Source: Anaerolineae bacterium (lineage in GTDB: Bacteria > Chloroflexota > Anaerolineae > CG2-30-64-16). Taken from it: DNA of 64,000 nt. The notes below the pieces were generated by a model. The model was given only the letters and a program-made list of their open reading frames with translations. It did no database searches and was not told where the DNA came from. Numbering within the stretch: position 1 is the first letter of the stretch; every line of letters begins with the position of its first letter. Positions 5,662-63,532 of the stretch are shown one piece after another. The DNA lies in contig JAPKMS010000040.1 of assembly GCA_026645775.1 (NCBI GenBank), forward strand, positions 20,406-84,405. Direction: 5' to 3'. The position numbers and the translations under genes are program-made.

Positions 5662-6908
5662 TGGCCGCGCCGCCCGCCGCTCGCAGTCAGCTCGCTGCTA
5701 CTTTTGCCGCCCTGCGCTATCCCAACTTCCAGCGCTGGTTCATCGGCCAGGCGCTCTCGTTGGCCGGCACCTGGATGCAGTCGGTCGCCCTGGGGTGGCT
5801 GGTCTACCAGATCACCGGCTCGAAGTTGGCGTTGGGCGCCATTACCGCCGCGGGAACCATCCCCACGCTTTTCTTTATGCTGCCCGCGGGTGTGCTTGCG
5901 GATCGGATGTCCAAGCGCCGGCTGCTGATGATTACCCAGGTCGTGATGATGATCAGCGCTCTGCTCCTGGCCGCGCTCACCTGGCTGGGAGTGCTCCAGG
6001 TGTGGCAGATCGCGGCGCTGGCATTGCTTTCGGGCATCGCCCAGTCGTTTGATGCCCCTGCCCGGCTGGCATTGACGCCGATGCTGGTCGATGACCGCCG
6101 TGACCTCCAGAACGCGATTGCGATGGGCTCGACGATCTTCAACCTCGCACGGGTGGTGGGCCCGGCCATCGGCGGGCTGGTGCTGGCGAGCATGGGCGCG
6201 GCGTGGTGCTTCGCGATCAACGGCGCCAGTTTTATCGCGGTGCTGATCGCGCTCTCGGGGATGAACCTGCCTGCCGACGTGGGCCGGCCGCCGAGCCAGC
6301 GGCACATGCTCGCGGAGATCGGCGACGGGCTGCGCTACGTGTGGCAGCAGCCGGTGGTGCGCACCCTGACCGTCCTGATCGGCGTCACTTCGATCTTCGG
6401 GTTCTCCTACTCGGTGCTGCTCCCGGCCTACGCGGTGGATGTGCTGAAGGTCGGTGAGACGGGCTACGGCCTGCTGAACGCGGCGGTGGGCGTCGGCGCA
6501 CTGGTCGGCGCGCTGACCGTCGCGTCGTTGAGCCGCCGGAAGAACAAGGGCGTGCAGCTCACGGTGGGCAACCTGATTTTTCCGCTGGCGGTGCTGGCCT
6601 TCGCTGTCACGCGCTCCTTCCCGCTGACCTTGGTCTGTATGGCGGGCGCAGGCATCGGGTTCGTCATCCAGAACGCCACCAGCAACACGATCATCCAGTT
6701 GATGGCGCCCGATGAGCTGCGCGGCCGCGTGATGAGCGTTTATGCGCTCTTCTTCTTTGGCACCACACCGATCGGCGCCCTGTTTGCGGGCGCCGTGGCC
6801 GAGCGGTGGGATTCCACGGCATCGATCGTGCTCGGCGCGGGCGTGACGCTGGCCTTTGCGTTGGTGATTTTCTTCTTCGTCCCGGCCGTGCGAAGGACGC
6901 AAATCTGA
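5658..6908 (+). CDS. MFS transporter
   Basis: Twelve hydrophobic segments and the MFS signature G(x)LADRMSKRRLL after TM2. Confidence 0.8.
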   Translation: MMAAPPAARSQLAATFAALRYPNFQRWFIGQALSLAGTWMQSVALGWLVYQITGSKLALGAITAAGTIPTLFFMLPAGVLADRMSKRRLLMITQVVMMISALLLAALTWLGVLQVWQIAALALLSGIAQSFDAPARLALTPMLVDDRRDLQNAIAMGSTIFNLARVVGPAIGGLVLASMGAAWCFAINGASFIAVLIALSGMNLPADVGRPPSQRHMLAEIGDGLRYVWQQPVVRTLTVLIGVTSIFGFSYSVLLPAYAVDVLKVGETGYGLLNAAVGVGALVGALTVASLSRRKNKGVQLTVGNLIFPLAVLAFAVTRSFPLTLVCMAGAGIGFVIQNATSNTIIQLMAPDELRGRVMSVYALFFFGTTPIGALFAGAVAERWDSTASIVLGAGVTLAFALVIFFFVPAVRRTQI

Positions 6909-6950
6909 CCCTTGTCTACCCATTTCCTTGTTTCCTGATCGACAAAGCCT

Positions 6951-8819
6951 ATGCTAACTGAACTCCGAATCCGTGACCTTGCCATCATTGACGAGCTCGA
7001 CCTGACCTTCGAGCCGGGCTTCAACGTGCTCACCGGTGAGACCGGCGCGGGCAAGTCGATCATCATCGACGCCGTCAACCTGCTGCTGGGTGACCGGGCC
7101 TCGGCTGATGTGGTGCGCGCCGGCGCGGAACGCACCGAGATCGAAGGCACGTACCAGCTTCGCGCTGCGGCCTCGGCGCGCCTGGCGCCGATCCTGGCCG
7201 AACATGGGTTGGAAGGCGACAGCCCGGACGAGCTCGTTCTGGCCCGCGAGGTGCGCGCCAATGGCCGTTCGATCGCCCGCGTCAACGGCCGGGCGGTCAC
7301 TACCGCCCTGCTGGGCGAGATCGGTGGGCGGCTGGTGGATGTGCACGGCCAGGGCGAACACCTCTCGCTGCTGCATGAACGGGAGCATCTTGGGTTGCTC
7401 GATCGCTATGCCGGGCTCAACGGGCAGGCCGCGGAGTTGGCCGAGCTGGTGCGGCGCGTGCGGGCCGTGCGGCGGGAACTGGAAGGGCTGCGCCAGAACG
7501 AGCGCGAGCGCGCCCGCCGCATCGATCTCCTCACCTACCAGATGGAAGAGATCGGCGCGGCCGCGTTGCAGCCGGGGGAGGAAGAGGCGCTGGAGGTCGA
7601 ACGCAAGCGCCTGGCCAACGCCGAGCAGCTTGCCGCTCTTAGCAGTGAGGCGGTCGCGCTCCTCGCCGGCGGCGATGATCCCGCGGAGGGGGAGCGGCTG
7701 GGCGCGGTGGATGCCCTGGGCGCGGCCGAGCAGGCGCTGACACGCCTCGCGCGCATTGACCCTGGCGCAGGGCCGCTGGCCGAACAACTCGGCGAGGCGG
7801 CCGCGGTGCTGGCCGATCTGACACACGAGCTGACGCGCTACCGCGAGGCTGTCGAGTTCAACCCCCGGCGGCTGGGACAAGTGGAGGAGCGCATCTATCT
7901 GCTCCATGCCCTGCAGCGCAAATACGGGGACACGGTGGCCGAGGTGTTGGCCTACGCCGAGCGCGCTGCGGCCGAGCTCGAGACCATCGGCCACGCGGAG
8001 GAGCGCATCGCCGATCTGGAAGCCGAGGAGGCCGGGCTGCTGAGCCGGATCGGCGCGGCCGGCGCGACGCTCTCGGCCAGGCGGCGGGCGGCCGGCGTGA
8101 CCCTGGCCCGCGCCATCGAGGCTGAGCTGGCCGATTTACAGATGGCCAAGGCGCGTTTCGCCGCCGACATCCACTGGACGGCCGATCCGACGGGCGCGAT
8201 CCTGGATGCGGAGACGGCCGCACAGGCCGGGCAGCCAGCCGGTCGCTATGCCTTCGACGGCCACGGGCTGGACGCGGTGGCTTTCCTCATCTCGGCCAAC
8301 CCCGGCGAGCCGCTGAAACCGATGGCCAAGGTGGCTTCCGGCGGCGAAACCTCACGGCTGATGCTGGCCCTGAAAACCGTCCTTGGCCGCGCCGATGAAA
8401 CCCCGACCCTGATTTTTGACGAGATCGACCAGGGCATCGGCGGCCGCGTGGGCGGCACGGTGGGCAGGAAGCTGTGGGAGCTGAGCAGGGGTCAGGAGTC
8501 AGGGGTCAGGAGACAGGAGTCAGGAGACAGGAGTCAGGAGACAGGGACCCGCTTCCAGCTTCTAGCTTCCAGCCACCAGGTTTTGTGCATCACCCACTTG
8601 CCGCAATTGGCGGCCTACGGCGACGCGCATTTTCGCGTCTCGAAGCATATCGTCGGCGAGCGGACGCTCACCGAGGTCAGCGTCTTGACGGACGAGGCCC
8701 GCGTGGCCGAGCTGGCGCAGATGATGGGCGCGGATTCCGAAGTCGGCCGCAGCAGCGTCGCAGAGATGCTGGGCGAAGTGGCGAGCCTTAAGCAAGCGAA
8801 AGGCGGAGATCTCAAATGA
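6951..8819 (+). CDS. recN: DNA repair protein RecN, carrying an in-frame low-complexity insertion
   Basis: N-terminal SMC-like Walker A (LTGETGAGKSIIIDAV), coiled-coil middle, C-terminal signature and Walker B (ASGGETSRLMLAL...LIFDEIDQGIGG). There are about 28 extra residues (RGQESGVRRQESGDRSQETGTRFQLLAS) before the HQVLCITHLPQ motif. Confidence 0.9.
   Translation: MLTELRIRDLAIIDELDLTFEPGFNVLTGETGAGKSIIIDAVNLLLGDRASADVVRAGAERTEIEGTYQLRAAASARLAPILAEHGLEGDSPDELVLAREVRANGRSIARVNGRAVTTALLGEIGGRLVDVHGQGEHLSLLHEREHLGLLDRYAGLNGQAAELAELVRRVRAVRRELEGLRQNERERARRIDLLTYQMEEIGAAALQPGEEEALEVERKRLANAEQLAALSSEAVALLAGGDDPAEGERLGAVDALGAAEQALTRLARIDPGAGPLAEQLGEAAAVLADLTHELTRYREAVEFNPRRLGQVEERIYLLHALQRKYGDTVAEVLAYAERAAAELETIGHAEERIADLEAEEAGLLSRIGAAGATLSARRRAAGVTLARAIEAELADLQMAKARFAADIHWTADPTGAILDAETAAQAGQPAGRYAFDGHGLDAVAFLISANPGEPLKPMAKVASGGETSRLMLALKTVLGRADETPTLIFDEIDQGIGGRVGGTVGRKLWELSRGQESGVRRQESGDRSQETGTRFQLLASSHQVLCITHLPQLAAYGDAHFRVSKHIVGERTLTEVSVLTDEARVAELAQMMGADSEVGRSSVAEMLGEVASLKQAKGGDLK
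8486..8573 (+). repeat. AGGAG-containing heptad tandem repeat (CAGGAGT/CAGGAGA, about 6 units) plus a CTTCCAGCTTCTAGCTTCCAGC tail, located in-frame inside recN
   Basis: Direct reading: ggtcaggagtcaggggtcaggagacaggagtcaggagacaggagtcaggagacaggga cccgcttccagcttctagcttccagcc. Confidence 0.6.
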
Positions 8820-9788: not shown

Positions 9789-10633
9789 AACTGACCCGTT
9801 ATGAGGCTGCCGATGCCTTCGTGGCGCGCGCCCGGGACTGGCTGGAGCAAAATGAGGCCGCCAACAACCTGATCCTGGGCATCGCCGTGCGCCTGGCCGA
9901 ATATCCCGACCGGGTCAAGGCGCCGCCCTACCTGGCGACGGTCGAGGCGGACGGCGCGCTGGCAGCCGCGGCCGTGATGACACCGCCGCATCGTGTCGTG
10001 CTCTACTCGGCCGCAGGCGCCGACCCTGCGCCCCTGGTCCCGCTCCTGGACGATTTGCGGGCCGGCGGCTGGCACGTGCCGGGCGTGATGGCCCCGGCGG
10101 CCACGTCTGAAGCGTTCGCCTGGCTCTGGGCAGCGGCGACCGGCGGCGACTACCGCCCCGCCATGCGTGAGCGCGCCTATGAGCTGCGCCGCGTGATCCC
10201 GCCTGCGGCCGTCCCCGGTCACTTGCGGCCGGCGACGGAGACGGACCTGCCGCTGGCAGCGGACTGGGTTTATCGGTTCATGCAGGACGCTGGGTTGCCG
10301 GGCACAGTCGAAGGCGCGCAGGAACTTGCCGAGATTCGCATCGCTGACCGCGATCTGTTTATCTGGGATAACGGCGGGCCAGCTTCGATGGCCGCCAAGA
10401 CGCGCCACAGCACCCACGGCATCGTCGTTAGCCTGGTTTTCACCCCGCGCGAGCTGCGCGGGCAGGGCTATGCGTCGGCGTGTGTAGCGGCTTTGAGCCA
10501 GCAGTTGTTGGATGCCGGTTGGGAGTTCTGTGCGCTTTTCACCGATCTGGCCAACCCCATCTCCAACGACATCTACCAGCGCATCGGCTACCGGCCGGTG
10601 TGCGACTTCAATGAGTACGATTTTGATGCTTAA
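9785..10633 (+). CDS. GNAT-fold acyltransferase with N-terminal extension
   Basis: C-terminal GNAT core (LRGQGYASACVAALSQQLLDAGWEFCALFTDLANPISNDIYQRIGY). The start overlaps the upstream stop (ATGA). Confidence 0.65.
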   Translation: MKLTRYEAADAFVARARDWLEQNEAANNLILGIAVRLAEYPDRVKAPPYLATVEADGALAAAAVMTPPHRVVLYSAAGADPAPLVPLLDDLRAGGWHVPGVMAPAATSEAFAWLWAAATGGDYRPAMRERAYELRRVIPPAAVPGHLRPATETDLPLAADWVYRFMQDAGLPGTVEGAQELAEIRIADRDLFIWDNGGPASMAAKTRHSTHGIVVSLVFTPRELRGQGYASACVAALSQQLLDAGWEFCALFTDLANPISNDIYQRIGYRPVCDFNEYDFDA

Positions 10634-10769
10634 CATCACCCGACGACTGAACGTCGCAGCAACCTTTGCAAAGTCGGCCGCCGCCGCCGACTGAGATGAG
10701 TCCAGGAAGGTGAACTTTGCGGAGGTTGCCGCGATTTCAATCGCCGGGGAACCACTCAACAGGAGAGAT

Positions 10770-12578
10770 GTTGTGTCTACCCAAACCATCCCCGCCCACA
10801 GCGATATCGATCCGAAATACACCTGGAACGCGCCCAGCGTCTTCCCGTCCGATGCCGCCTGGGACGCCGAGTGCGTCAGCGTCGCGCAGGATCTGGCCGG
10901 CCTGCGGGCTTACCAGGGCCGCCTGGCAGAGGGTCCCGACGCCTTGGCCGAGGCGGTGACCGCCATCGAGCATCTCTTCCGCCGGGTCTACAAGCTGTAC
11001 GCCTACGCGGGCATGGCCTACGCGGTGGACACCACCGATCAGGCCGCAGCCAAGCGCAATGGCCGGGCCCAGGCGTTGTTCGGCCAGACGGCGGCCGCCG
11101 CGGCTTTCTTTGATCCCGAGCTGTTGGCCCTTGGCGAGCCGACGCTGCGGCGCTGGCTGGCCGAGGATGCCCGGCTGGCTTACCTGGACCACTACGTGGA
11201 TAATCTCTTCCGCAAACAGGCGCACATCCGCTCGGCCGAGGTGGAGGAGTTGTTGGGTCTGCTGGCCGACCCGTTCGGGAACACCGCCATGACCCAAAGC
11301 ATGTTGGCCGATGCCGATTTCAAGTTCCCGTTCGCAGTTGCCGGCGACGGAACCCAACGGCCGGTGACCCAGGGCGCCCTGGGCGAGATCCTCTCTGGCC
11401 CGGACCGGGAGGCGCGGCGCACGGCCTGGGAAGGCTACATGGACACCTACCTGGCCCACAAAAACACCCTGGCCTCGAATTTAATGACCTCGGTCAAGAA
11501 TTACGTCTTCACCATGCGCGCTCGCCGTCACGCCAGCACGCTGGAGATGGCGCTGCACGGTCCCAATATCCCGGTGGCGGTTTACCGGAACCTGATCGAT
11601 ACCTTCAAGAAGAACCTGCCCACCTGGCATCGCTATTGGCAGGTGCGGCGTCGGGCGTTGGGCGTGGAAACGCTGGAACCCTACGACATCTGGGCGCCGC
11701 TCGCTAAGACCCGCCCGCAGATCCCGTACGCGCAAGCCGTCGCCACGATCTGCGATGGGTTGGCGCCGTTGGGGCAGGCGTACGTGGAAACTGTGCGCCG
11801 CGGCTGTCTGCAAGACCGCTGGGTGGACGTCTACCCGTGTCAGGGTAAGATGGGCGGCGCGTTCTCATCCGGTGCGCCCGATACCTTCCCGTTCATCATG
11901 ATGAGCTACACCGACGAGGTGTTCAGCATGAGCACGCTGGCGCATGAGCTGGGCCACTCGATGCACTCCTACCTCACCTGGCAGAACCAGCCCGCCCTCT
12001 ACAGCGACTACACGATGTTTGTGGCCGAGACCGCCTCCAACTTCCACCAGGCCATGGTGCGCGCCCACTTGCTGGAGACCGCGACCGATCCCGCCTTCCT
12101 GTTGGGGACGTTGGAAGAGGCGATGTCCAACTTCCACCGCTACTTCTTTATCATGCCCACGCTGGCCCAGTTTGAGCTGGCCGTGCACGAGGCCGAAGAG
12201 CGCGGGGAAGGCATGAGCGCGGATGACATGATCGGGCTGATGGCTGACCTGTTCAGTGAGGGCTACGGCGGCGGCGTACACGTGGATCGCGAGCGGACGG
12301 GGATCACCTGGGCCACTTTCTCGCACCTGTATGCCGACTACTATGTCTTCAACTACGCCACCGGGATTTCGGCAGCCAATGCGCTCGCACTGCGTGTCCG
12401 CTCAGGGACGCCTGGCGCGGCCGATGACTATCTGCGGTTCCTGAAGGCCGGCAACTCGCTCTACCCCGTGGATGCGCTGAAGGTGGCCGGCGTTGACATG
12501 ACCACCCCCGCACCGGTGGAGGCCGCGTTCGCCGTGCTCGCCGGGCTGGTGGATCGGCTGGAGAAGCTGGTCGGGTGA
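10770..12578 (+). CDS. pepF: oligoendopeptidase F (M3B family)
   Basis: HELGHSMH zinc-binding HEXXH plus M3 architecture. GTG start at 10770 behind an AGGAGA RBS. The ATG at 10710 is less likely. Confidence 0.85.
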   Translation, partial: VVSTQTIPAHSDIDPKYTWNAPSVFPSDAAWDAECVSVAQDLAGLRAYQGRLAEGPDALAEAVTAIEHLFRRVYKLYAYAGMAYAVDTTDQAAAKRNGRAQALFGQTAAAAAFFDPELLALGEPTLRRWLAEDARLAYLDHYVDNLFRKQAHIRSAEVEELLGLLADPFGNTAMTQSMLADADFKFPFAVAGDGTQRPVTQGALGEILSGPDREARRTAWEGYMDTYLAHKNTLASNLMTSVKNYVFTMRARRHASTLEMALHGPNIPVAVYRNLIDTFKKNLPTWHRYWQVRRRALGVETLEPYDIWAPLAKTRPQIPYAQAVATICDGLAPLGQAYVETVRRGCLQDRWVDVYPCQGKMGGAFSSGAPDTFPFIMMSYTDEVFSMSTLAHELGHSMHSYLTWQNQPALYSDYTMFVAETASNFHQAMVRAHLLETATDPAFLLGTLEEAMSNFHRYFFIMPTLAQFELAVHEAEERGEGMSADDMIGLMADLFSEGYGGGVHVDRERTGITWATFSHLYADYYVFNYATGISAANALALRVRSGTPGAADDYLRFLKAGNSLYPVDALKVAGVDMTTPAPVEAAFAVLAGLVDRLEKLVG

Positions 12579-12584
12579 GTTTTC

Positions 12585-12619
12585 AGAAACCCGGTTTCTC
12601 CGAGAAACCGGGTTTCTCC
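12585..12619 (+). terminator. tandem near-palindromic 15-mers (agaaacccggtttct / agaaaccgggtttct) after pepF; hairpin or terminator-like
   Basis: Each unit is self-complementary and the two units are mutual reverse complements. Sits directly after the pepF stop. Confidence 0.4.
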
Positions 12620-12641
12620 ACAGAAGCCGGTAGGATGGAGC

Positions 12642-13562
12642 ATGGCTGAGATGATCCGGTTGGCCGATGGTCGCCGGCTGGCCTACGCCGAATACGGCGA
12701 TCCTGATGGCGCCCCGGTGTTCTTTTTCCAGGGCACGCCGAGCTCGCGGCTGATGCACCCCGACGAGGCCGTGACGCGTGATCTCGGCGCGCGGCTCATC
12801 GTGGCGGATCGGCCCGGCTTCGGCCTGTCCGACCCCAAACCCGGCCGCACGCTGCTGGACTGGCCCGACGACATCGTCGCGCTGGCGGACGCGTTGGGCA
12901 TCGGCCGCTTCGGCCTGGTCGGCATCTCTGGCGGCGGGCCCTACGCGGCCGCGTGCGCCTACAGGATCCCGCAGCGCCTGACCGCGGTCACGATTGTCGG
13001 CGGCAGCGGGCCGGTGGATCTGCGCAACACGCTTGCGGGCGCGGCGAGGGAGCGCCACATCGGCTACGTGCTGGCCCAGCGTGCGCCCTGGCTGTTGCGG
13101 TTGGTGATCCTGCTGGCGCGCAACCCGCGGCGCAACCCCGCCCGCTTTCAAGCGCAGTTCAGCCAGGGCGCGGCCGCGGCCGATCGGGCCATCATGGCGC
13201 GGCCGGCGATGCGTGAGATGTTCGTGCGCAGCTACGCCGAGGCATCGCGCCAGGGCGTGACCGCCTTCGCCGATGAGGTGATCCTGGCGTCGAAGCCCTG
13301 GGGCTTTCCCCTGCAAGACATCACGACGCCGGTCCACCTGTGGCATGGAGAGGAGGATCGCAACACCCCCCTCGCGATGGCGCGGGCGATGGCCGCGGCG
13401 ATCCCGAACTGCTGCACGACTTTCCTGCCGGGCGAAGGGCACCTGTTCCTGTTTGAGCGGTGGGGGGAGATTTTGGGCGATTTGCTGACGATCAGCGAGG
13501 TGAGGGGAAGGGCGATGATCGAAGAAAAACTGGAGCCGATACATCCTGGCGAAGTCTTGTAG
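12642..13562 (+). CDS. alpha/beta hydrolase
   Basis: GISGGG nucleophile elbow and alpha/beta hydrolase fold pattern. The 3' end is co-linear, in the same frame, with the higA-like start. Confidence 0.75.
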   Translation: MAEMIRLADGRRLAYAEYGDPDGAPVFFFQGTPSSRLMHPDEAVTRDLGARLIVADRPGFGLSDPKPGRTLLDWPDDIVALADALGIGRFGLVGISGGGPYAAACAYRIPQRLTAVTIVGGSGPVDLRNTLAGAARERHIGYVLAQRAPWLLRLVILLARNPRRNPARFQAQFSQGAAAADRAIMARPAMREMFVRSYAEASRQGVTAFADEVILASKPWGFPLQDITTPVHLWHGEEDRNTPLAMARAMAAAIPNCCTTFLPGEGHLFLFERWGEILGDLLTISEVRGRAMIEEKLEPIHPGEVL

Positions 13563-13983: not shown

Positions 13984-15474
13984 GTGATCCATATTTATCC
14001 ACCCACCCTCGACGCGGCCCATGCTGAGTTCCTGGCCGCGTACCCATCCTACACGACGACGGCCGCGCTGGACGACCTGCGCACCCGCGAATACGCGCGA
14101 CTGGACGCGGCCGGCCATGTCTACCTGGACTACACCGGCGGCGGGCTGTACGCCGAGAGCCAGTTGCGGGGGCACCTCGATCTGCTGAGCTGCGGCGTCT
14201 TCGGCAACCCGCACTCGCACAATCCGACCTCCCAGGCCATGACGTGCCTGGTGGATGACGCGCGGTCGTACGTGCTGGAGTATTTCAATGCGCCGCCGGG
14301 GGAGTACGTCGCCATCTTCACGCAGAACGCCAGCGGCGCGCTCAAGCTGGTGGGCGAGGCATACCCGTTCGAGCCGGGCGACCGCTACCTGCTCACCTTC
14401 GATAACCATAATTCGGTCAACGGCATCCGCGAGTTCGCGCGGAGCAAAGGCGCGGCGTTCACCTACCTGCCGGTCGTCCAGCCGGAGCTGCGCATCGACC
14501 CGGCGACGTTGGCCGCGCATCTCGACCTGGCTCAGCCCGGCCGCCACAACCTGTTCGCGTTCCCGGCGCAGTCCAACTTCACCGGCGTGCAGCACCCGCT
14601 GGAGATGATCGCCCAGGCGCGGGCCAAGGGGTGGGACGTGCTCGTGGACGCGGCGGCGTTCGCACCGACCAACCGGCTCGACCTGGCCCGCTGGCTGCCC
14701 GATTTCGTGCCGCTGTCGTTCTACAAGATGTTCGGCTATCCCACCGGCGTCGGCTGCCTGCTGGCGCGCAAATCTGCGCTGGAGAAGCTGGTCCGGCCCT
14801 GGTACGCGGGCGGCACAATCACCATCTCGTCGGTGCAGGGGGACGGCCACTATCTCGTCCCGGGCGAGGCCGGCTTCGAGGACGGCACGGTCAACTACCT
14901 GAACATCCCCGCGGTCGAGATCGGCCTGCGCCACCTGGCCGCGGCCGGCATCGATGTCATCCACGAGCGGGCCATGTGCCTGGCCGGCTGGCTGATTGAC
15001 AGCCTGACCCGCCTGCGACACAGCACCGGCCAACCGCTCGTCCGCCTCCACGGCCCGGCGAGCCTGAATGGGCGCGGCGGCACCGTCACGGTGAGCTTCT
15101 ACGACCGGGACGGGCAGCAGCTCGACGACCGGCGCATTGAGGAGTTGGCCGGCCATCAGCGCATCTCGCTGCGCACCGGCTGTTTCTGCAACCCCGGCGC
15201 GGGCGAGGTGGCTCACGGGCTGACGCCGGAGATCATGCGCGAGTTCTTCCGCGGCCCGGCGCCGCTGTCGTTCCAGGAGCTGCGCGCCGAGATGCGCGCC
15301 CGCTTCGGCATGGACGTCAGCGCGGTGCGGCTGTCGGTGGGCATCGCCTCCACCTTCGCCGACGTGGATACGTTCATCCGCTTCGCAGCCCGGCTCCTCG
15401 ATCACACCGCGGCCGAGATCGGTGCAGTCGAGGTCACAGATCCCGGCTGCTCGGTGGATCGCGACGCGGCATAA
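13984..15474 (+). CDS. class V aminotransferase-fold PLP enzyme of the Moco-sulfurase (ABA3/MCSU NifS-like domain) type, without a MOSC domain
   Basis: VYLDYTGGGLYAESQL, FGNPHS, LEYFNAPPGEY, SFYKMFGYPTGVGCLL and RTGCFCNPGAGE are recalled to match the NifS-like domain of eukaryotic Moco sulfurases. GTG start. Confidence 0.7.
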   Translation: MIHIYPPTLDAAHAEFLAAYPSYTTTAALDDLRTREYARLDAAGHVYLDYTGGGLYAESQLRGHLDLLSCGVFGNPHSHNPTSQAMTCLVDDARSYVLEYFNAPPGEYVAIFTQNASGALKLVGEAYPFEPGDRYLLTFDNHNSVNGIREFARSKGAAFTYLPVVQPELRIDPATLAAHLDLAQPGRHNLFAFPAQSNFTGVQHPLEMIAQARAKGWDVLVDAAAFAPTNRLDLARWLPDFVPLSFYKMFGYPTGVGCLLARKSALEKLVRPWYAGGTITISSVQGDGHYLVPGEAGFEDGTVNYLNIPAVEIGLRHLAAAGIDVIHERAMCLAGWLIDSLTRLRHSTGQPLVRLHGPASLNGRGGTVTVSFYDRDGQQLDDRRIEELAGHQRISLRTGCFCNPGAGEVAHGLTPEIMREFFRGPAPLSFQELRAEMRARFGMDVSAVRLSVGIASTFADVDTFIRFAARLLDHTAAEIGAVEVTDPGCSVDRDAA

Positions 15475-15620
15475 CTCAAAATTACCACAGAGGCGCGGAG
15501 GACACAGAGGCTTCCTAAAGGCTCTCTGCGCTCTCTGTGTCTCTGCGGTGAGTTTTTCATGCGCGGGCGCGGCGCCACGCGATACCAAACGAAGAATCCC
15601 GATAGAAACGAATCGAGGAC

Positions 15621-17003
15621 ATGGAGACACACTGGGCGCACGACGCCATCTTCTACCACATCTACCCGCTGGGCCTGTGCGGCGCGCCGGCGCGCAACGA
15701 TTTCGCGTCGCCGCCGCAGCCGCGCCTGGAGCAGCTCTCGGCCTGGATCCCCCACCTGCACGACTTGGGGATCAACGCGCTCTACCTCGGGCCGCTGTTT
15801 GAGGCCACCGCGCACGGCTACGACACGGCGGACTATTACCACGTGGATCGCCGCCTCGGGACGCGCGAGACGCTGGCCCGCCTGGTGGCCGAGCTCCACG
15901 CCAACGGCATCCGCGTGATCCTGGACGGCGTCTTCAACCACGTCGGACGCGACTTTTGGGCCTTCCGCGATGTGCTCCGAAACGGGGCAGGCTCCCCTTA
16001 CTGCGGTTGGTTTGCGGGCCTTAACTTCGGCGGCCGCAGTCCCCTGGGCGACCCGTTCACCTATGAAAGCTGGCAGGGGCACTATGAGCTGGTCAAGCTG
16101 AACCTGCGCGTTCCCGAACCTCGCCAACATCTGCTCGAAGCCGTGCGGCACTGGATCGTTGACTACGACATCGACGGGCTGCGCCTCGACGTGGCGGACA
16201 GCCTGGACCTGGATTTCCAGCGGGAGCTTTCCAGGTTCAGCCGCGGGCTGCGCCGCGATTTCTGGCTGATGGGCGAGGTGATCCACGGCGATTACCGCCG
16301 CTGGGCCAACCCGGAGACGCTGGACGCCGTGACCAACTACGAGTGCTACCGGGGCCTCTACTCCAGCCTGAACGCCAAGAACTACTTTGAGATCGCGTAT
16401 GCGCTCAACCGGCAGTTCGGCGACAACGGCCTCTATCGCGGCCTGCCGCTCTACAACTTCGTGGATAACCACGACGTGGACCGGGTGGCCAGCAACCTGA
16501 CGAACCCGAAGCACCTCCACCCGCTCTACTGCCTGCTGTTCACCATGCCGGGCGTCCCGTCGATCTACTACGGCAGCGAGTGGGGGCTGGCGGGAAAGCG
16601 CAGCCCGCAGAGCGATGCCCCGCTCAGGCCGCAGTTGGATCTGGCGCAGCTCCGGCAGAACGTCCCGCATCCCGACCTGCTGGCTGACATCCGCAGGTTG
16701 ATCGAGGTGCGCAAAGCGTCGCCGGCCCTGCGCCGCGGCAGCTATCGCCAACTCCACGTGAGCTTCGAACAACTGGCGTTTGCGCGCGAATTCGAGGGCG
16801 AGACCGTCATCGTCCTGCTCAACGCATCCGCTGAGCCGGTGAGCCTGGAGGTCCCGGTCAACCTTGCGAACGGGCGCCAGTTGGCCGATCTGCTCAATTC
16901 TGGGCAGCGGTTTGAAGTCAGCAACGGCCGCCTGCGCGTGGATTCCGTGTATCCCTGTTGGGCGCGTGTGCTGAGCACCACGGCTCATAGAGCAATCACA
17001 TAG
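15621..17003 (+). CDS. GH13 alpha-amylase family glycoside hydrolase
   Basis: GINALYLGPLFE, GIRVILDGVFNHVG, GLRLDVAD and FVDNHD catalytic regions. Confidence 0.8.
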   Translation: METHWAHDAIFYHIYPLGLCGAPARNDFASPPQPRLEQLSAWIPHLHDLGINALYLGPLFEATAHGYDTADYYHVDRRLGTRETLARLVAELHANGIRVILDGVFNHVGRDFWAFRDVLRNGAGSPYCGWFAGLNFGGRSPLGDPFTYESWQGHYELVKLNLRVPEPRQHLLEAVRHWIVDYDIDGLRLDVADSLDLDFQRELSRFSRGLRRDFWLMGEVIHGDYRRWANPETLDAVTNYECYRGLYSSLNAKNYFEIAYALNRQFGDNGLYRGLPLYNFVDNHDVDRVASNLTNPKHLHPLYCLLFTMPGVPSIYYGSEWGLAGKRSPQSDAPLRPQLDLAQLRQNVPHPDLLADIRRLIEVRKASPALRRGSYRQLHVSFEQLAFAREFEGETVIVLLNASAEPVSLEVPVNLANGRQLADLLNSGQRFEVSNGRLRVDSVYPCWARVLSTTAHRAIT

Positions 17004-17118
17004 AGGTTGTACAAAGGAATCGAGCCTTCAGGCGGTCTGACCGGCTAAAGCCTCGAGTCCGGAGTGCGAAGTATATCTGGTTGCTTTATTAGTTTAACTT
17101 CTGTCTGGGAGAGCTCGC

Positions 17119-18219
17119 TTGGACAAGACACCGCTCTACCTCCAAATCGCCGACGCGATCCGGCAGGAACTGCTGGCGGGCAAGCTCCGCCCAGGCGACC
17201 CGCTGCCGCCCGTGCGCGAGATGGCCGAGCGCTGGAATTGCACGCCGGGCACCGTCCAGCAGGCGTACAAAGAATTGGCGCGTCAAGGCCTGGCGGTTAG
17301 CCGCGCCGGTCAGGGCACGCGCGTGGGCGCAGCGCAGCCCGCGCAGCCGCCGGACCGGACGCCACTGCGCCGTGCCTCGCTGGTGCACCAGGCCGAGGCG
17401 TTCCTGCTAGAGGTCTTGGCCGCGGGTCACACGCCCGAGGAGGCTGAGAGCGCGTTCCGCGCGGCGCTGGATCGCTGGCGCGCATTGGCTGTGATGCAGC
17501 CGGAGGTGTCGGCGCGCGTGCTGCGGTTCATCGGCAGCCATGATCCCGCCCTCTCCCTGGTCGCGAGCCGCTTCCCGGAAATCTGCCCTGGCTGCGCGCT
17601 CGAGCTGGCGTTCACGGGCAGCCTAGGCGGGCTGATTGCACTGGCCGAGGGCAAGGCTGACCTGGCCGGCAGCCATCTGTGGGACGAGGAGAGCGACACC
17701 TACAACGCACCGTTCATTCGCCGCCTGCTGCCCGGCCGCCGCGTGGCTTTGTTGACCCTGGCGCAGCGCCGGCTGGGCCTGATCGTGCCGCCCGGCAACC
17801 CGGCCGGCCTGGCGGAGCTCGGTGATCTGACTCGGCCCGGCGTGCGCTTCATCAACCGGTCGCGCGGCACGGGCACGCGCGTCTGGCTCGACGCACAGCT
17901 TGCCCGCCGCGACGTCCCATCCGATGCCATCGTCGGCTATTCCCAGGAGGCCTCCACCCACGCTGAGGTTGCCCGCGCGGTCGCCGAGGGCCAGGCGGAC
18001 GCCGGGCTGGGGATCGAGGCCGCGGCGCGGGCTTACGGGCTGGGCTTCATCTTTCTGACCACCGAGCCCTATGACCTGGTGATACCGGCCGCGGCGTGGG
18101 AGATGCCGCCCGTGCAGGCGCTCGCAACGTGGCTCCGCACGGCAGAGGCGCGCGTCGTGATCGGTGGGCTCGGCGGGTATGAGACGGCGGAAACGGGGCA
18201 GATGGTCTGGGTGGGGTGA
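17119..18219 (+). CDS. GntR-family HTH regulator fused to a periplasmic-binding-protein-like domain
   Basis: N-terminal GntR wHTH (LYLQIADAIRQELLAGKLRPGDPLPPVREMAERWNCTPGTVQQAYKEL). The C-terminal 230 aa are PBP-like. TTG start. Confidence 0.7.
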   Translation: MDKTPLYLQIADAIRQELLAGKLRPGDPLPPVREMAERWNCTPGTVQQAYKELARQGLAVSRAGQGTRVGAAQPAQPPDRTPLRRASLVHQAEAFLLEVLAAGHTPEEAESAFRAALDRWRALAVMQPEVSARVLRFIGSHDPALSLVASRFPEICPGCALELAFTGSLGGLIALAEGKADLAGSHLWDEESDTYNAPFIRRLLPGRRVALLTLAQRRLGLIVPPGNPAGLAELGDLTRPGVRFINRSRGTGTRVWLDAQLARRDVPSDAIVGYSQEASTHAEVARAVAEGQADAGLGIEAAARAYGLGFIFLTTEPYDLVIPAAAWEMPPVQALATWLRTAEARVVIGGLGGYETAETGQMVWVG

Positions 18220-18292
18220 GCATTTCAGGAGGCTTGTACCTCTCGATCTACTCCAGGCGGAGGTCGGAGGTGCGAAGTTGATCAGGGGAAGG

Positions 18293-18348
18293 CGAGGGGG
18301 GCGAGAGCATCCGTACGGATGCTGCCGCCCCCCTCGTGCTTCTTTATT
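18293..18348 (+). terminator. intrinsic terminator
   Basis: Stem cgaggggggcg...cgcccccctcg with an inner palindrome gcatccgtacggatgc, followed by tgcttctttatt. Confidence 0.5.
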
Positions 18349-18459
18349 CGCTGAAATCCACCGCCGCGGTCATGTTCCAGCGCAGGCGGGGTTTGCCTAG
18401 GTTGATTTTAAAACTCGTCAAGCGCAGAGCGATATCCGTAGGAGTACATGCCCCTGGCG

Positions 18460-18487
18460 CTTGACGTTCCCCCGCCACCGGTTATAC
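18460..18487 (+). promoter_or_regulatory. sigma70-like promoter (TTGACG-N16-TATACT) for the M20 peptidase gene
   Basis: Sequence match only. Confidence 0.35.
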
Positions 18488-18504
18488 TACATCCACCAAA
18501 TTGA

Positions 18505-19602
18505 ATGCGAGGTGGAATCTTGATCAGCGAAACTCGTCTAGTTGAAACTTTCCTTGACCTGGTTGCCATTGACAGCCCTTCCGGCCACGAAGAGCCGATC
18601 AGCAAGAATCTGGCCCGTCGCTTCACCGAGCTCGGCGGCGAGGTGGAGCAAGACGAGCATTGGAATCTGATTGCCCGCTTCCCGGCCGACCGGGGCGATT
18701 GGCTGATGCTCAGCGCGCACATGGACACCGTCGGGTTGGACACCGGTATCAAGCCGGTGATCCGCGACGGTGTGATCTACTCCGACGGCACGACGATCCT
18801 GGGCGGCGATGATAAGTCCGGCGTCGCCGCGATCCTGGAGACGATCCGTTCGCTGCGGGAAGCTGACCTGCCGCACCCACCCCTCGAGGTCGTCATCAGC
18901 GTGAGCGAGGAGGTTGGTCTGCGCGGGGCAAAGCTGCTGGACAAGAGCAAGCTGCGGGCGCGGCGCGGCTACGTGCTGGATGCCGGGGGTCCTATCGGCG
19001 TCATCGTCACCAATGCGCCCAGCCAGGATTCGCTGGAGATCAAGGTGCACGGCAAGAAGGCGCACGCGGGCAGCGAGCCGGAAAACGGCATCAATGCGAT
19101 CCGGGTAGCAAGCGAAGCCATTGCGGCAATGCCGTTGGGCCGCATCGACTTCGAGACGACGGCCAACATCGGCATCATCCAGGGCGGCGTTGCTACCAAC
19201 ATCGTGCCCGATGAGGTTTACATCAAGGGCGAGGCGCGCAGCCGGGACAACCTCAAGCTGGCGACCCAAACCGCGGCAATGGCTGCGGCGTTCCAGGACG
19301 CGGCGGAGCGCTATGGCGCGCACATCGATCTCAAGATCAAGCGCGCATATTCCACGTTCAAGCTGGCCGATGATCATCCTGTGGTCGCGGCCGCGGCCGC
19401 TGCGGCCCAGCGGCTGGGCCTCACGCCGATCATCAAAGGCAGTGGCGGCGGCAGCGATGCCAATATCTACGCGGAGTCTGGGGTCGAATGCGCGGTGCTC
19501 AGCACCGGCATGGCCAACGTGCACACGCCGCAAGAGCAAATCGCGATCGCCGACATGGTCGGCGCGGCGCGGCTGTTACAAGAGATCGTGGTTGAAAGTT
19601 GA
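18505..19602 (+). CDS. M20 family metallopeptidase (peptidase T / tripeptidase-like)
   Basis: SAHMDTVG and GGDDKSGVAAILE motifs. The true start may be the TTG at 18529 behind AGGTGG. Confidence 0.8.
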   Translation: MRGGILISETRLVETFLDLVAIDSPSGHEEPISKNLARRFTELGGEVEQDEHWNLIARFPADRGDWLMLSAHMDTVGLDTGIKPVIRDGVIYSDGTTILGGDDKSGVAAILETIRSLREADLPHPPLEVVISVSEEVGLRGAKLLDKSKLRARRGYVLDAGGPIGVIVTNAPSQDSLEIKVHGKKAHAGSEPENGINAIRVASEAIAAMPLGRIDFETTANIGIIQGGVATNIVPDEVYIKGEARSRDNLKLATQTAAMAAAFQDAAERYGAHIDLKIKRAYSTFKLADDHPVVAAAAAAAQRLGLTPIIKGSGGGSDANIYAESGVECAVLSTGMANVHTPQEQIAIADMVGAARLLQEIVVES

Positions 19603-19655
19603 GGATTCAAGGTTGAAGGTTGCAGTTCACACCTTCAACCTTGAACTTTCAACCA
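19589..19655 (+). repeat. AAGG/GAGG-rich tandem-repeat hairpin element overlapping the M20 gene stop
   Basis: Left arm ggttgaaagttgaggattcaaggttgaaggt, loop tgcagttcac, right arm accttcaaccttgaactttcaacc. Confidence 0.45.
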
Positions 19656-19669
19656 AAACGGAGGTCATC

Positions 19670-20695
19670 ATGTCCCATCCACTTCCCGTGATGTTCGTCC
19701 ACGGCTTCAACGGTGATCCAGGCGATTGGACTGATGGGGGGTTCCGGCAGTATCTGTTGGAACACGGCGGCCTGGACCCGGATTTGGTGCGCATCTTCCG
19801 CTATGGCTTGGCGGAGGATGGCACTTACAACAACCGCGGCGACCTGCGGCGGATCGCGGCCAGGTTGGCCGGCGTGGGGCTGACCGACGCGGAGCGCCTG
19901 ACGTGCAGCGTCGATCAGCTCAGCGCGGACAGCGTCGCCAGGGGCGGCCCGAGCCACGTCACGCTGATCGCACACAGCCTGGGCGGCATCATCAGCCGCT
20001 ACTACCTGGCTCAGGCCGCGCCCGACACGTTCGGCACGCACTACCGCGGCAACGTGGGCCGGCTGATCACCATCGGCTCGCCGCATCGCGGGGTGGATAC
20101 GTTGGAGCTGACCAAGCTGGCGCCGCGCAATTCCGTGGCCTGGGGCTTCGTCCGATTGCTGGAAAAGCTCGGTTTGGCTCCGGCGCTGCCCGCGCAAGCG
20201 ATCGACGCGTGGGAAACCGCATTGGACCAGAGCCAGCGCGAAGCGCGTGAGAAGCTGGCGGAGGGGCCGCTGCCCGAAAGCCGCGTCCTGTTGACCGATT
20301 CGCCGATCCCGGAGCAGTTGGCGCCCGATAGCCCGCTGCTGGCCGGATTGAACCAACCGGGTTCGCTGCCGGCGAACATCGACGCGCACTGCGTCTACGG
20401 TGATATCCGCTTGCGCGTGCGCGTCTTGCTGGGGGCGGGCGGCGTCTCACTGCTGGATCATGCAGTCAGCTTCGGGGATCTGGCGGTGCCGGCCCGCAGT
20501 GCGCGGGAGATCCCCGGCGCAACGTCCACGCCGCACGAGTACAGCACCGAAAAACTGATTGAGCTGACGCTGCGATTTGGCCCGGCCGCGACCGAGTCCC
20601 GCTCGCTGGCGGGTTTCTTCCCCGAGACCCAGCATGGCCGGTTGTTATCGAATCCGGAAGTTCAGGATGGGGTGTTGGCGTTGTTGAATGACTGA
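19670..20695 (+). CDS. alpha/beta hydrolase, lipase/esterase-like (PGAP1/DUF676-like)
   Basis: Start ATG at 19670 behind GGAGG. VMFVHGFNGD and AHSLGG nucleophile motifs. The ORF-track entry 19121..20695 is an upstream read-through. Confidence 0.7.
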   Translation: MSHPLPVMFVHGFNGDPGDWTDGGFRQYLLEHGGLDPDLVRIFRYGLAEDGTYNNRGDLRRIAARLAGVGLTDAERLTCSVDQLSADSVARGGPSHVTLIAHSLGGIISRYYLAQAAPDTFGTHYRGNVGRLITIGSPHRGVDTLELTKLAPRNSVAWGFVRLLEKLGLAPALPAQAIDAWETALDQSQREAREKLAEGPLPESRVLLTDSPIPEQLAPDSPLLAGLNQPGSLPANIDAHCVYGDIRLRVRVLLGAGGVSLLDHAVSFGDLAVPARSAREIPGATSTPHEYSTEKLIELTLRFGPAATESRSLAGFFPETQHGRLLSNPEVQDGVLALLND

Positions 20696-38255: not shown

Positions 38256-40859
<2,604 letters not shown>

Positions 40860-40878
40860 GGTGCCCTCCGCGTTCCGG

Positions 40879-40969
40879 GAATTGGTAGATTGGTAGACTG
40901 GTAGATTGGGAAAAGCCTCGCGACAATCGGCATACCAGTTCCCCAAGTTACCGATTTACCAGTCTACCT
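40879..40969. repeat. GGTAGATTGG-type inverted-repeat element in the clpB 5' leader
   Basis: aattggtagattggtagactggtagattggg -N37- ttaccgatttaccagtctacc. Confidence 0.45.
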
Positions 40970-41081: not shown

Positions 41082-41141
41082 ATCATCACATATCAGACAT
41101 CCGACATCTAATCTCTTTGCGTTGATACTTGAGAGTGCGTT

Positions 41142-62253: not shown

Positions 62254-63532
62254 AGCTGTCGCCGTCGATCCGCGCGACCTGGCAGCCCGCGGCCTCCAGC
62301 TCCTGCGCCACCGCTGCAGGGATGGCCTCCGCGCCGCTGCCGATCAGGGTGACGCGGGCGGCCTGGCGCGCCTGGGCCTTGTCGAAGCCGACCGTGAGCC
62401 CAAACGTCTGCACGTAGGCGACGGCAAGCTGCCAGTTCACGCGGCCGGCCGGCGTGTTGACCGGGGCCAGCAACACGTAGTGCGGCAGCGGCTTCTCCGC
62501 CGGTGCGGGCATTTCCGGCACGGCCAGGTTCACGGTGACGCTGTTTTGTCCATCCAGCAGGATTTCAGCGGATGTGACCGCCGTGCCCGCCACCGAGACC
62601 TGGTAAAGCCCGGCCGCCAAGGCCCTGAACGCGAAGCTGTCATCGGCCGCGAGGGCGGTTGTGGCAACTGTGGCGCCCTCGCACAGCAGCACGATTGAAC
62701 GTCCGGCGCCGTTGGTCACGCGGCCCTGCACCACGCTGACGTTAGCAGGCGCCGGTGCGGGCGTTTCCGGCACGGCCAGGTTCACGGTGACGCTGTTCTG
62801 CCCATCCAGCACGATATCGGCGGATGTGACCGCCGTGCCCGCCACCGAGAGCCGGTAAACGCCGGCCGCCAGCGCGCTGAACGAGAAGTTGCCATCGGCC
62901 GCGAGGACCGTTGTGGCAACCGTGGCACCTTCGCGCTGCAGAACGATCGAGCGCCCGGCGCCGTTGGTCACGCGGCCCTGCACCCCGCTGGCGTTGACAG
63001 GCATCGGCACGGCCGCCGTGACACGCTGGAAGGTTACCTCGAAGCTGTGATGGAACCGGGTGTTGCCCGTGGCTTCGTCGGGGTGATCGGTGTGCAGGCC
63101 AGTCACTTTGTCGCTGGCCAGCTCTAGCCCCGGCACCCCCAGCGCGATCACATCACACACCTGGCCGGGCCACATGGGCAGATTGGTGCCAGGCTCGCTG
63201 GTTGGCTTATCCACCGTCACGACCTGGAACCCACCGGACCAGCCGATCCGCGCCTGCGCGCCGTAAATACGGGCGCCGGCCTCGTCGTTGATGTTGACAT
63301 AGAGGTTCTGCCGGCCGTTGTTTTCGTGCGGGGCTAGGTGGCGGACGCGGACGGCCTTCCAATAGCTGGCGCCGGCCGCCGGTGTCGCAGACGTCACCTG
63401 CACGCCATAGGCGGCAGCTTCGTTGGCATCACTGCTGACGCCGCGGCTGACCGCGGCCGGCTGGGATGTCGCTCGGCCAAGCAATGCCTCCCACAACCGC
63501 TTCCAAAATGTCGCGAATGTCATGGCGCGCAT
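62204..63532 (-). CDS. repeat-domain protein: novel module + 2 near-identical CarboxypepD_reg-like repeats + CWB2-like C-terminal domain
   Basis: The tandem 73-aa repeats VQGRVTNGAGRSIVL...NSVTVNLAVPE are about 90% identical. The C-terminal 85 aa align with the C-termini of the ORFs at 1057..4251 and 63537. Confidence 0.65.
   Translation of the reverse strand: MRAMTFATFWKRLWEALLGRATSQPAAVSRGVSSDANEAAAYGVQVTSATPAAGASYWKAVRVRHLAPHENNGRQNLYVNINDEAGARIYGAQARIGWSGGFQVVTVDKPTSEPGTNLPMWPGQVCDVIALGVPGLELASDKVTGLHTDHPDEATGNTRFHHSFEVTFQRVTAAVPMPVNASGVQGRVTNGAGRSIVLQREGATVATTVLAADGNFSFSALAAGVYRLSVAGTAVTSADIVLDGQNSVTVNLAVPETPAPAPANVSVVQGRVTNGAGRSIVLLCEGATVATTALAADDSFAFRALAAGLYQVSVAGTAVTSAEILLDGQNSVTVNLAVPEMPAPAEKPLPHYVLLAPVNTPAGRVNWQLAVAYVQTFGLTVGFDKAQARQAARVTLIGSGAEAIPAAVAQELEAAGCQVARIDGDSYAIEAELARRIAAGQA

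Follow-up and report, generated by a model that had tools for sequence, protein, structure and literature searches.

The window analyzed here, a 64,000-nucleotide stretch of DNA from an uncultured Anaerolineae bacterium (assembly GCA_026645775.1, contig JAPKMS010000040.1, positions 20,406 to 84,405), carries recN, the gene for the repair ATPase RecN. Near its 3' end this gene contains a tract of 7-nt units at 8486-8573. The tract is probably a heptanucleotide simple-sequence repeat (SSR) that sits in a permissive surface loop of RecN, evolves by slippage, and is filtered for reading frame and stop codons. The gene, the linker and the two arms of the tract have the following coordinates.

6951 to 8819, plus strand: recN, 622 aa, from the open reading frame (ORF) list and the TIGR00634 match; its stop codon overlaps the ATG (8816) of the next ORF
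8415 to 8444, plus strand: Walker B/D-loop motif FDEIDQGIGG, left anchor of the linker, in invariant alignment columns
8445 to 8576, plus strand: linker from the D-loop to the H-loop strand, residues 499-542, 44 aa
8486 to 8548, plus strand: arm 1, nine purine-rich CAGGRGW heptads, six with AGGAG, two CAGGGGT and one degenerate CAGGGAC
8549 to 8576, plus strand: arm 2, pyrimidine-rich (C)CGCTTC CAGCTTC TAGCTTC CAGCCAC of the GCTTCCA family, peptide RFQLLASSH
8577 to 8597, plus strand: H-loop strand QVLCITH, right anchor of the linker, invariant columns H542-H549

Anatomy of the repeat tract

The tract consists of about nine CAGGRGW heptads followed by about three GCTTCCA heptads in a single register. 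Tandem Repeats Finder (TRF) describes 8486-8545 as 8.6 copies of CAGGAGT with a period of 7 (84% matches, score 85) or alternatively as 4.4 copies with a period of 14 (93% matches, score 101), and 8551-8573 as 3.3 copies of GCTTCCA (score 39). With 8.6 and 3.3 copies of 7-nt units, it belongs among the long SSRs, which have at least three head-to-tail copies, beyond chance. Read in the CAG register over 8486-8576, units 1-5 are CAGGGGT CAGGAGT CAGGGGT CAGGAGA CAGGAGT, units 6-9 are CAGGAGA CAGGAGT CAGGAGA CAGGGAC, and units 10-13 are CCGCTTC CAGCTTC TAGCTTC CAGCCAC; the next heptad is CAGGTTT. The AGGAG core is present in six units, the same count as in the original prediction, which was made from the sequence of the window. 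The pattern CAGGAGWCAGGAG, with at most one mismatch, has seven matches in the window, all of them inside 8486-8540, where shuffled sequences would give 0.13. A pattern search of the 64-kb window found no CAGGAGT unit outside the recN tract.

Both sub-arrays and the conserved His-Gln-Val codons downstream (CAC CAG GTT) are in one 7-nt phase, and arm 2 continues into these codons with its register unchanged. Growth and turnover in place are favored because the flanking codons share the heptad register. The tract translates to RGQESGVRRQESGDRSQETGTRFQLLASSH with the reading frame preserved, as had been noted, the polar part QESGVRR/QESGDRS/QETGT coming from arm 1. It has no stop codon in any frame.

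Structured forms of the tract itself were considered and rejected. From the sequence, arm 1 and arm 2 pair at five of seven positions, one of these being a G-U pair, and the fold of the tract is no better than that of shuffles (z +0.92 as RNA, +1.22 as DNA). A G-quadruplex needs at least four runs of three or more G, and the tract has only three (8488, 8502 and 8544, the last 38 nt away); four or more such runs are present in the recN loops of relatives L002, L164 and L081. A search for known RNA families gave zero Rfam matches across the whole window.

The linker in the RecN structure

RecN is otherwise canonical, in agreement with the original prediction. ORF 6951-8819 scores 530.5 bits against the TIGR00634 RecN profile (curated cut-off 407.85), with the profile match interrupted at residue 515. 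The head motifs are invariant in the alignment: Walker A GETGAGKS, signature SGGE, FDEIDxGIGG and the H-loop TH. The best solved relative is the RecN of D. radiodurans (4AD8, E 5.6e-57).

Linker length was measured between FDEIDQGIGG of the Walker B/D-loop and QVLCITH of the H-loop strand. Of the 78 RecN loci listed from across Chloroflexota, 50 have a linker of 17 aa, as does the solved D. radiodurans structure, where it reads ...AEQLSRLADTRQVLVVTH; the window has 44 aa. The segment is therefore extra with respect to canonical RecN, as had been proposed. Its measured excess of 27 aa, or 81 nt, is close to the proposed 84-87 nt and falls just short of it.

An AlphaFold model of the window RecN was computed from a 25-sequence alignment (mean predicted local distance difference test score, pLDDT, 72.9). 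Its best structural match is 4AD8, with a template modeling (TM) score of 0.74 normalized to the target. The coiled-coil structure 4ABX gives a TM score of 0.87, and residues 143-395 of the model are spanned by helices. Residues 514-540 have pLDDT below 50 and lack secondary structure; they lie between a helix (498-513) and a strand (543-545). In the model the 27 extra residues are a disordered loop, polar and then Ser/Pro/Leu-rich, and the surface loop that had been anticipated is borne out to this extent. In SMC, Rad50 and ABC heads, the corresponding helix-to-strand turn is on the outside of the RecA-like lobe. The loop is most likely tolerated and neutral, and not required by RecN.

Variation between strains

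Copy number changes by whole units among close strains, as in a simple-sequence repeat. L173 is a metagenome-assembled genome (MAG) with 93.2% nucleotide identity to the window's recN once the loop is set aside; its array matches that of the window except that exactly 21 nt (three heptads, 7 aa) are missing. The length polymorphism between strains that a comparison of orthologues was expected to reveal is thus present. Proteins P0123, P0124 and P0126 have the same allele as L173 and are 615 aa, compared with 622 aa in the window, and P0125, a 622-aa database protein, carries a point variant of the array. Among the window-type loops, eight of ten extend 16, 23 or 30 aa past a conserved Leu-Thr, in 7-aa steps.

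These strains also bear on the trivial explanation that the array is an assembly or sequencing artefact. Short tandem repeats can be mis-assembled, but the tract is about 90 nt and thus shorter than a typical read, and its reading frame is intact. L172, a Logan assembly of the independent run SRR26809233 with a 99.9% identical gene, has an array identical to that of the window; a related array is found in the NCBI MAG L173 and a variant in P0125. The probability of an artefact is close to nil.

The recN site in relatives

The nearest proteins to the window RecN are RecNs of uncultured Anaerolineae MAGs. The gene order near recN is kept: MFS transporter, recN, an acyl-carrier-like gene and GNAT genes. 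The linker is 23-72 aa long and mostly of low complexity in the 120 closest relatives (67-100% identity). The DNA of 14 close relatives was taken for loop comparison, and nearly all of their recN loops are short-period arrays whose units vary. Loops of the CAGGRGN type occur in L164, L168, L162, L081 and L002. The first four have a second arm of the CAGCTTC or CTCCAAC type, and L002 is without a second arm. The L081 loop consists of GGGATCA shading into GCTTCCA within one register. L161 has octamers, (CGGAGGAG)x4, followed by (CCTTCAA)x4, and L166 has (GGAGCCGA)x12.8 followed by (AGCCATC)x6. In L165, L169 and L003, (GACGAAG or GACGAAC)n is followed by its exact or near-exact complement (CTTCGTC)n, the L165 loop being (GACGAAG)x4 + (CTTCGTC)x4. 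In-gene hairpins are strong in these three (z -6.9 in L165, -4.4 in L169 and -4.0 in L003).

The first half of the loop is richer than the second in residues with purine-rich codons in 55 of 60 long loops. Loop type and RecN tree are discordant, with P0002 having the loop type of the P0024/P0032/P0033 group. Some nested relatives (P0011, P0116) have just 9-11 non-repetitive residues. By these sequence comparisons the recN site is a long-standing hypervariable spot across a clade.

The variety of units bears directly on the Shine-Dalgarno (SD) hypothesis, in which the AGGAG cores would pair with the anti-SD sequence and pause translation, as in the original prediction, or else help the head domain to fold or adjust expression. 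Of the 48 AGGAG on the plus strand of the window, six fall within 49 nt here, its densest cluster, and the ribosome binding sites of this organism are of the GGAGG type, as at 19661, ahead of the ATG at 19671. There is no ATG, GTG or TTG within the tract at which an internal start could follow the SD-like cores, so that spurious internal initiation would be avoided. However, the cores are not conserved. The same site has SD-less units in relatives, among them GACGAAG/CTTCGTC (L165, L169), GACGAAC (L003) and CCTTCAA. Improved profiling and biochemical assays moreover found no pauses at internal SD-like motifs and attributed the earlier signal to a method artefact (PMC6377232). Pausing is accordingly a very improbable role for the cores, which would instead be a by-product of the unit currently fixed in this strain.

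A second functional explanation is that the loop is selected at the protein level, for example as a flexible charged tether or as a motif of the RecN head that binds a partner or serves regulation. All 120 closest relatives have a linker extended to 23 aa or more, and the polar-then-Ser/Pro-rich polarity recurs in 55 of 60 long loops. Yet sequence, unit and length are unconserved even at 92% gene identity, and the polarity is a direct result of purine-rich followed by pyrimidine-rich DNA. The short non-repetitive loops of P0011 and P0116, the predicted disorder, and the presence of the same kind of peptide in unrelated proteins also argue against a selected loop, and this explanation has a low probability.

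Proposed frame and stop-codon filters

The in-place repeat is envisaged as follows. The lineage is prone to 7-nt, and some 8-nt, arrays, which are normally intergenic inverted pairs folding into hairpins. At the recN site, replication slippage or unequal exchange may make such arrays expand, contract and turn over. Two filters, both set by the need for a functional RecN, would then act. First, only frame-preserving changes in length persist, in steps of three units, 21 nt and 7 aa, as the step between the window and L173 shows. Second, only units that are stop-free in all three frames persist, as is shown for the units seen. Units must be stop-free in every frame because three heptads run through all three frames.

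The second filter may also shape the second arm. Arrays of ACTCCTG and ACCCCTG (the complements of CAGGAGT and CAGGGGT), GGTTGAA and TTGAAGG contain the stop codon TGA; arrays of CAGGAGT, GCTTCCA, GACGAAG, CTTCGTC and CCTTCAA are stop-free. The TGA in the exact complement of CAGGAGT would explain why arm 2 is only a degenerate complement of arm 1. Inside recN, perfect inverted arrays are confined to GACGAAG/CTTCGTC, whose units have no stop on either strand. First arms of the CAGGAGT type have a degenerate complement after them, and in L161 the first arm is not complementary to the CCTTCAA arm that comes second. Intergenic arrays are free of this limit and pair perfectly (19580-19665 in the window; 6815-6985 in L164). 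The stop-codon rule for the second arm is thus suggested by a handful of cases.

The same 7-nt unit, not being a multiple of three, raises the alternative of a contingency locus. Most slips would be frameshifts; a slip of one or two heptads would turn RecN off, with loss of the H-loop and the C-terminal 80 aa, and a later slip would restore it, so that recombinational repair would vary heritably between on and off. In four relatives (proteins P0107, P0115, P0133 and P0136) the sequence is intact as far as the array and shifts frame inside it, and their cluster mates P0127, P0131, P0132 and P0140 are in frame. The frameshifted proteins, however, come from ENA assemblies, and the cluster mates include many fragments of 122-468 aa on long contigs, a pattern that is the signature of error-prone long-read assemblies. 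Ascertainment is also biased, as the protein match list could catch only frameshifts near the C-terminus. The four frameshifts may stem from genuine slippage or from errors in long-read assembly, and as proof of phase variation they are undermined by the fragmentary cluster mates. In addition, the imperfection of the array (84% matches) lowers the slippage rate, the tract is near the 3' end of the gene whereas known phase-variable repeats are near the 5' end or promoter, and the frame is kept in the window, L172, L173 and P0125 alike. On and off switching of RecN at this site is therefore quite unlikely, and the four alleles amount to a lead.

Heptad arrays elsewhere in the window and lineage

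Of the 58 short-period arrays in 318 kb of close relatives, 36 have a period of 7 and eight a period of 8, compared with approximately zero in Markov-shuffled controls. Over all loci (2.2 Mb), period 7 accounts for 110 of 202 short-period arrays. The arrays are mostly intergenic and are frequently inverted pairs. The window contains such a pair.

19590 to 19654, plus strand: intergenic hairpin, (GGTTGAA)x4.7 and then its complement (TTCAACC)x4

The stop codon of ORF 18505-19602 is a TGA inside the first units of this hairpin, which stops 16 nt before the ATG at 19671, the GGAGG ribosome binding site at 19661 lying between. The RNA fold of 19580-19665 has -34.7 kcal/mol (z -5.15), and none of 200 shuffles was as good. 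The hairpin may act as a terminator, a stabilizer of the mRNA or a regulator. In L164, the intergenic stretch 6815-6985 combines CAGGRGW units with their true complement (z -5.06); the CAGGRGW unit is also intergenic in L003. The original prediction had placed the recN tract in a repeat family. This holds in that arrays of the same kind are intergenic at 19590-19654 and that the same CAGGRGW unit recurs in L164 and L003, and fails in that CAGGAGT itself is nowhere else in the window. The CCTTCAA unit is shared between arm 2 of the L161 recN loop and the window's hairpin, and GACGAAC is found at three L003 sites. In L003, GAACGAC arrays are present directly upstream of recN (9919-9971) and in the recN loop.

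Arrays are also found in other genes. L161 has an in-frame (GGATTGC)x4.4 array at 18138-18168 in a MgsA/RarA-like AAA ATPase (gene 16495-18885, minus strand), encoding ...DSAIRNPQSTIH... In L003, 15837-15921 of the minus-strand ORF 14154-16595 carries, on the coding strand, in-frame (GACGAAG-like)n followed by (GTCGTCC-like)n. Its host is an 813-aa DEAD/DEAH helicase with a Cys-rich C-terminus, in which the array peptide ADEGRTTKDED...PSFVVRRPSS lies between motif II and the SAT motif (motif III). In L152, an in-frame octamer array (CTCCCCTG) at 15652-15684 gives SGGAEEQRSRGDQILPCSPALLPPC in an otherwise typical TrmD, and in L002 an (ACGAAAA) array at 17278-17304 is in the C-terminal tail of GyrA. 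A clade at about 55% identity has heptad or octamer arrays at about residues 420-457 of RecN and in its C-terminal tail, in two sets.

L090 9335-9362, L091 1907-1935, L092 1783-1812, L099 2771-2797, L100 4323-4355, L116 2479-2530: RecN arrays of the ~55%-identity clade, set 1
L090 9877-9914, L092 2347-2393: RecN arrays of the ~55%-identity clade, set 2

The arrays in the MgsA/RarA-like ATPase, helicase, TrmD and GyrA show that the phenomenon is not specific to RecN, and those at other RecN positions that RecN has several repeat-tolerant spots. Enrichment of in-frame arrays in DNA-repair genes, for which RecN, MgsA and the helicase seemed to speak, was considered and dropped: TrmD has one too, and most other candidate ORFs are spurious.

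Several further repeats were observed. L002 has (CTTCCAG)x5, the unit of the window's arm 2, at 14597-14631, directly upstream of the probable start of gyrA. In the window, an octamer array (ATTGGTAG)x3.6 at 40881-40909 is immediately upstream of the point where the long ORF 38256-40946 probably starts (~40859, minus strand), and a weaker (CATCAGA)x3.6 lies 175 nt from it at 41084-41108. Two tandem palindromic 18-mers (GAGAAACCSGGTTTCTC) at 12584-12630, between ORFs 10710-12578 and 12642-13562, form an intergenic hairpin pair of a kind unlike the heptad arrays. A tandem duplication of 252 nt at 62498-63002 (2.0 copies, 87% identity, TRF score 793) is probably a repeated domain of a large protein.

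Insertion or growth in place

The original prediction held that an element had inserted into coding DNA. In this alternative, the insertion was in frame and made by a mobile element that is small and palindromic, comparable to a miniature inverted-repeat transposable element (MITE) or a Rickettsia palindromic element (RPE), and that was kept as a surface loop. The layout in relatives is two-armed and partly or fully palindromic, units are shared with intergenic hairpins and other genes, unit types are discordant with the RecN tree (P0002), and in-frame palindromic elements are established in Rickettsia (PMC10969869). However, there is no sign of a discrete element. The CAGGAGT array is without a second copy in the 64-kb window, and copies elsewhere share periodicity and short units only, with no defined consensus, ends or length. 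No flanking target-site duplication is visible in the sequence, and the arms are only 5/7 complementary. The continuous register with the conserved flanking codons, the clade-wide hypervariability of the loop and the whole-unit differences between strains, which are SSR behavior, favor growth in place. Insertion of a mobile element is thus unlikely.

A broader scheme joins several of these alternatives. Self-propagating palindromic heptad arrays of Anaerolineae would move units between intergenic hairpins and genes by conversion or exchange between arrays. They would repeatedly colonize the same loops where housekeeping proteins tolerate them, in RecN, RarA/MgsA, a repair helicase and TrmD. 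They would make hypervariable peptides with a 7-aa period and, at recN, would switch recombinational repair off and on within populations by slippage. As a whole this scheme is improbable.

The in-place SSR under frame and stop filters, which is favored, has several observations to accommodate that weigh against it. First, identical units are found at unrelated places (CCTTCAA, CTTCCAG and GACGAAC); this recurrence is a hint of dispersal, of traffic from one array to another or of selection on which units are kept. Second, both arms are fully replaced in L161 at 8% gene divergence (92.0% identity outside the loop). Import of its loop together with the flanks by recombination was considered, and the flanks show no clear sign of it, being no closer to L166-type lineages than to the window. 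Third, the purine-then-pyrimidine polarity of the long loops suggests a palindromic origin and not random birth of repeats. Fourth, the window and L173 share a 201-nt tract without mismatches (8397-8597), in which both the array and the Walker B/D-loop codons are contained. The two genes differ at 6.5% of sites, and the next longest run of identity is 55 nt. Such a tract suggests recombination in the recent past or nucleotide-level constraint. Finally, that the loop is neutral is something we infer. Seeding from, or exchange with, other arrays may be compatible with the favored in-place repeat.

Relation to known repeats

Heptamer repeats known as STRR were reportedly described in cyanobacteria by Mazel and coworkers in 1990. 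According to the survey by Mrazek, as summarized in PMC4679880, heptamers are the most abundant class of long SSRs in many bacteria. Examples are GGGAATC in Xanthomonas and GGGGAYT in Nostoc; repeats of the GGGNATC type belong to the G-quadruplex-forming class, and most long heptamer SSRs lie between genes, 7-11% of them being intragenic in Xanthomonas (PMC4692102). Stop codons restrict where heptamer repeats can be placed in ORFs (PMC4679880). No description of heptamer arrays in Chloroflexota was found in the literature searched on heptamer repeats.

The arrays described here resemble prokaryotic long heptamer SSRs. They are tandem 7-nt units in several to a dozen copies, over-represented with respect to shuffles and mostly intergenic; some form inverted stem-loop pairs, a minority are intragenic, and the units are characteristic of the genome. 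The recN array differs in lying deep within an essential-type repair ATPase and not at the edge of a gene. It also differs in having two arms, the second limited by stop codons, and in occupying one orthologous site across an Anaerolineae clade while the units change.

The TAACTGA repeats of marine Beggiatoaceae (PMC4679880) are likewise mainly intergenic heptamers near start and stop codons, and their overlap with ORFs is governed by the stop-bearing orientation, the same rule as the one put forward here. They consist of one genome-wide unit, and their ORF cases are almost all at protein termini, in contrast to the many units and internal loops of the present arrays.

Like the RPEs and other in-frame MITEs (PMC10969869), the arrays are palindromic repeats in frame in housekeeping genes, at positions compatible with the fold. 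Unlike the RPEs, which are ~150 bp long with a family consensus and dispersed, nearly identical copies, the recN tract is a 7-nt, microsatellite-like repeat that lacks a conserved full-length consensus and changes by whole units.

Phase-variable SSR loci of Haemophilus and Neisseria (PMC2651432, PMC12721329) share with recN a unit within an ORF that is not a multiple of three and a length that varies between strains. In those loci the repeats are perfect and close to the 5' end or promoter of genes for surface proteins or restriction-modification, whereas the recN array is imperfect and near the 3' end. Furthermore, recN is a repair gene, and all its trustworthy alleles are in frame.

Significance

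The recN tract shows how a genome-wide mutational habit, in this case 7-nt tandem arrays that mostly form hairpins between genes, can write new and fast-changing peptide loops into conserved enzymes. Two rules for the survival of arrays in genes can be checked: changes in length come in steps of three units, and the unit is stop-free in every frame. Strains within Anaerolineae populations that are 93% identical can be told apart by the recN array, which serves as a natural marker. In annotation, AGGAG-rich or hairpin-forming tracts within genes of Chloroflexota need not be regulatory. If the frameshifted alleles are true, recN would be an unusual case of a phase-variable repair gene.

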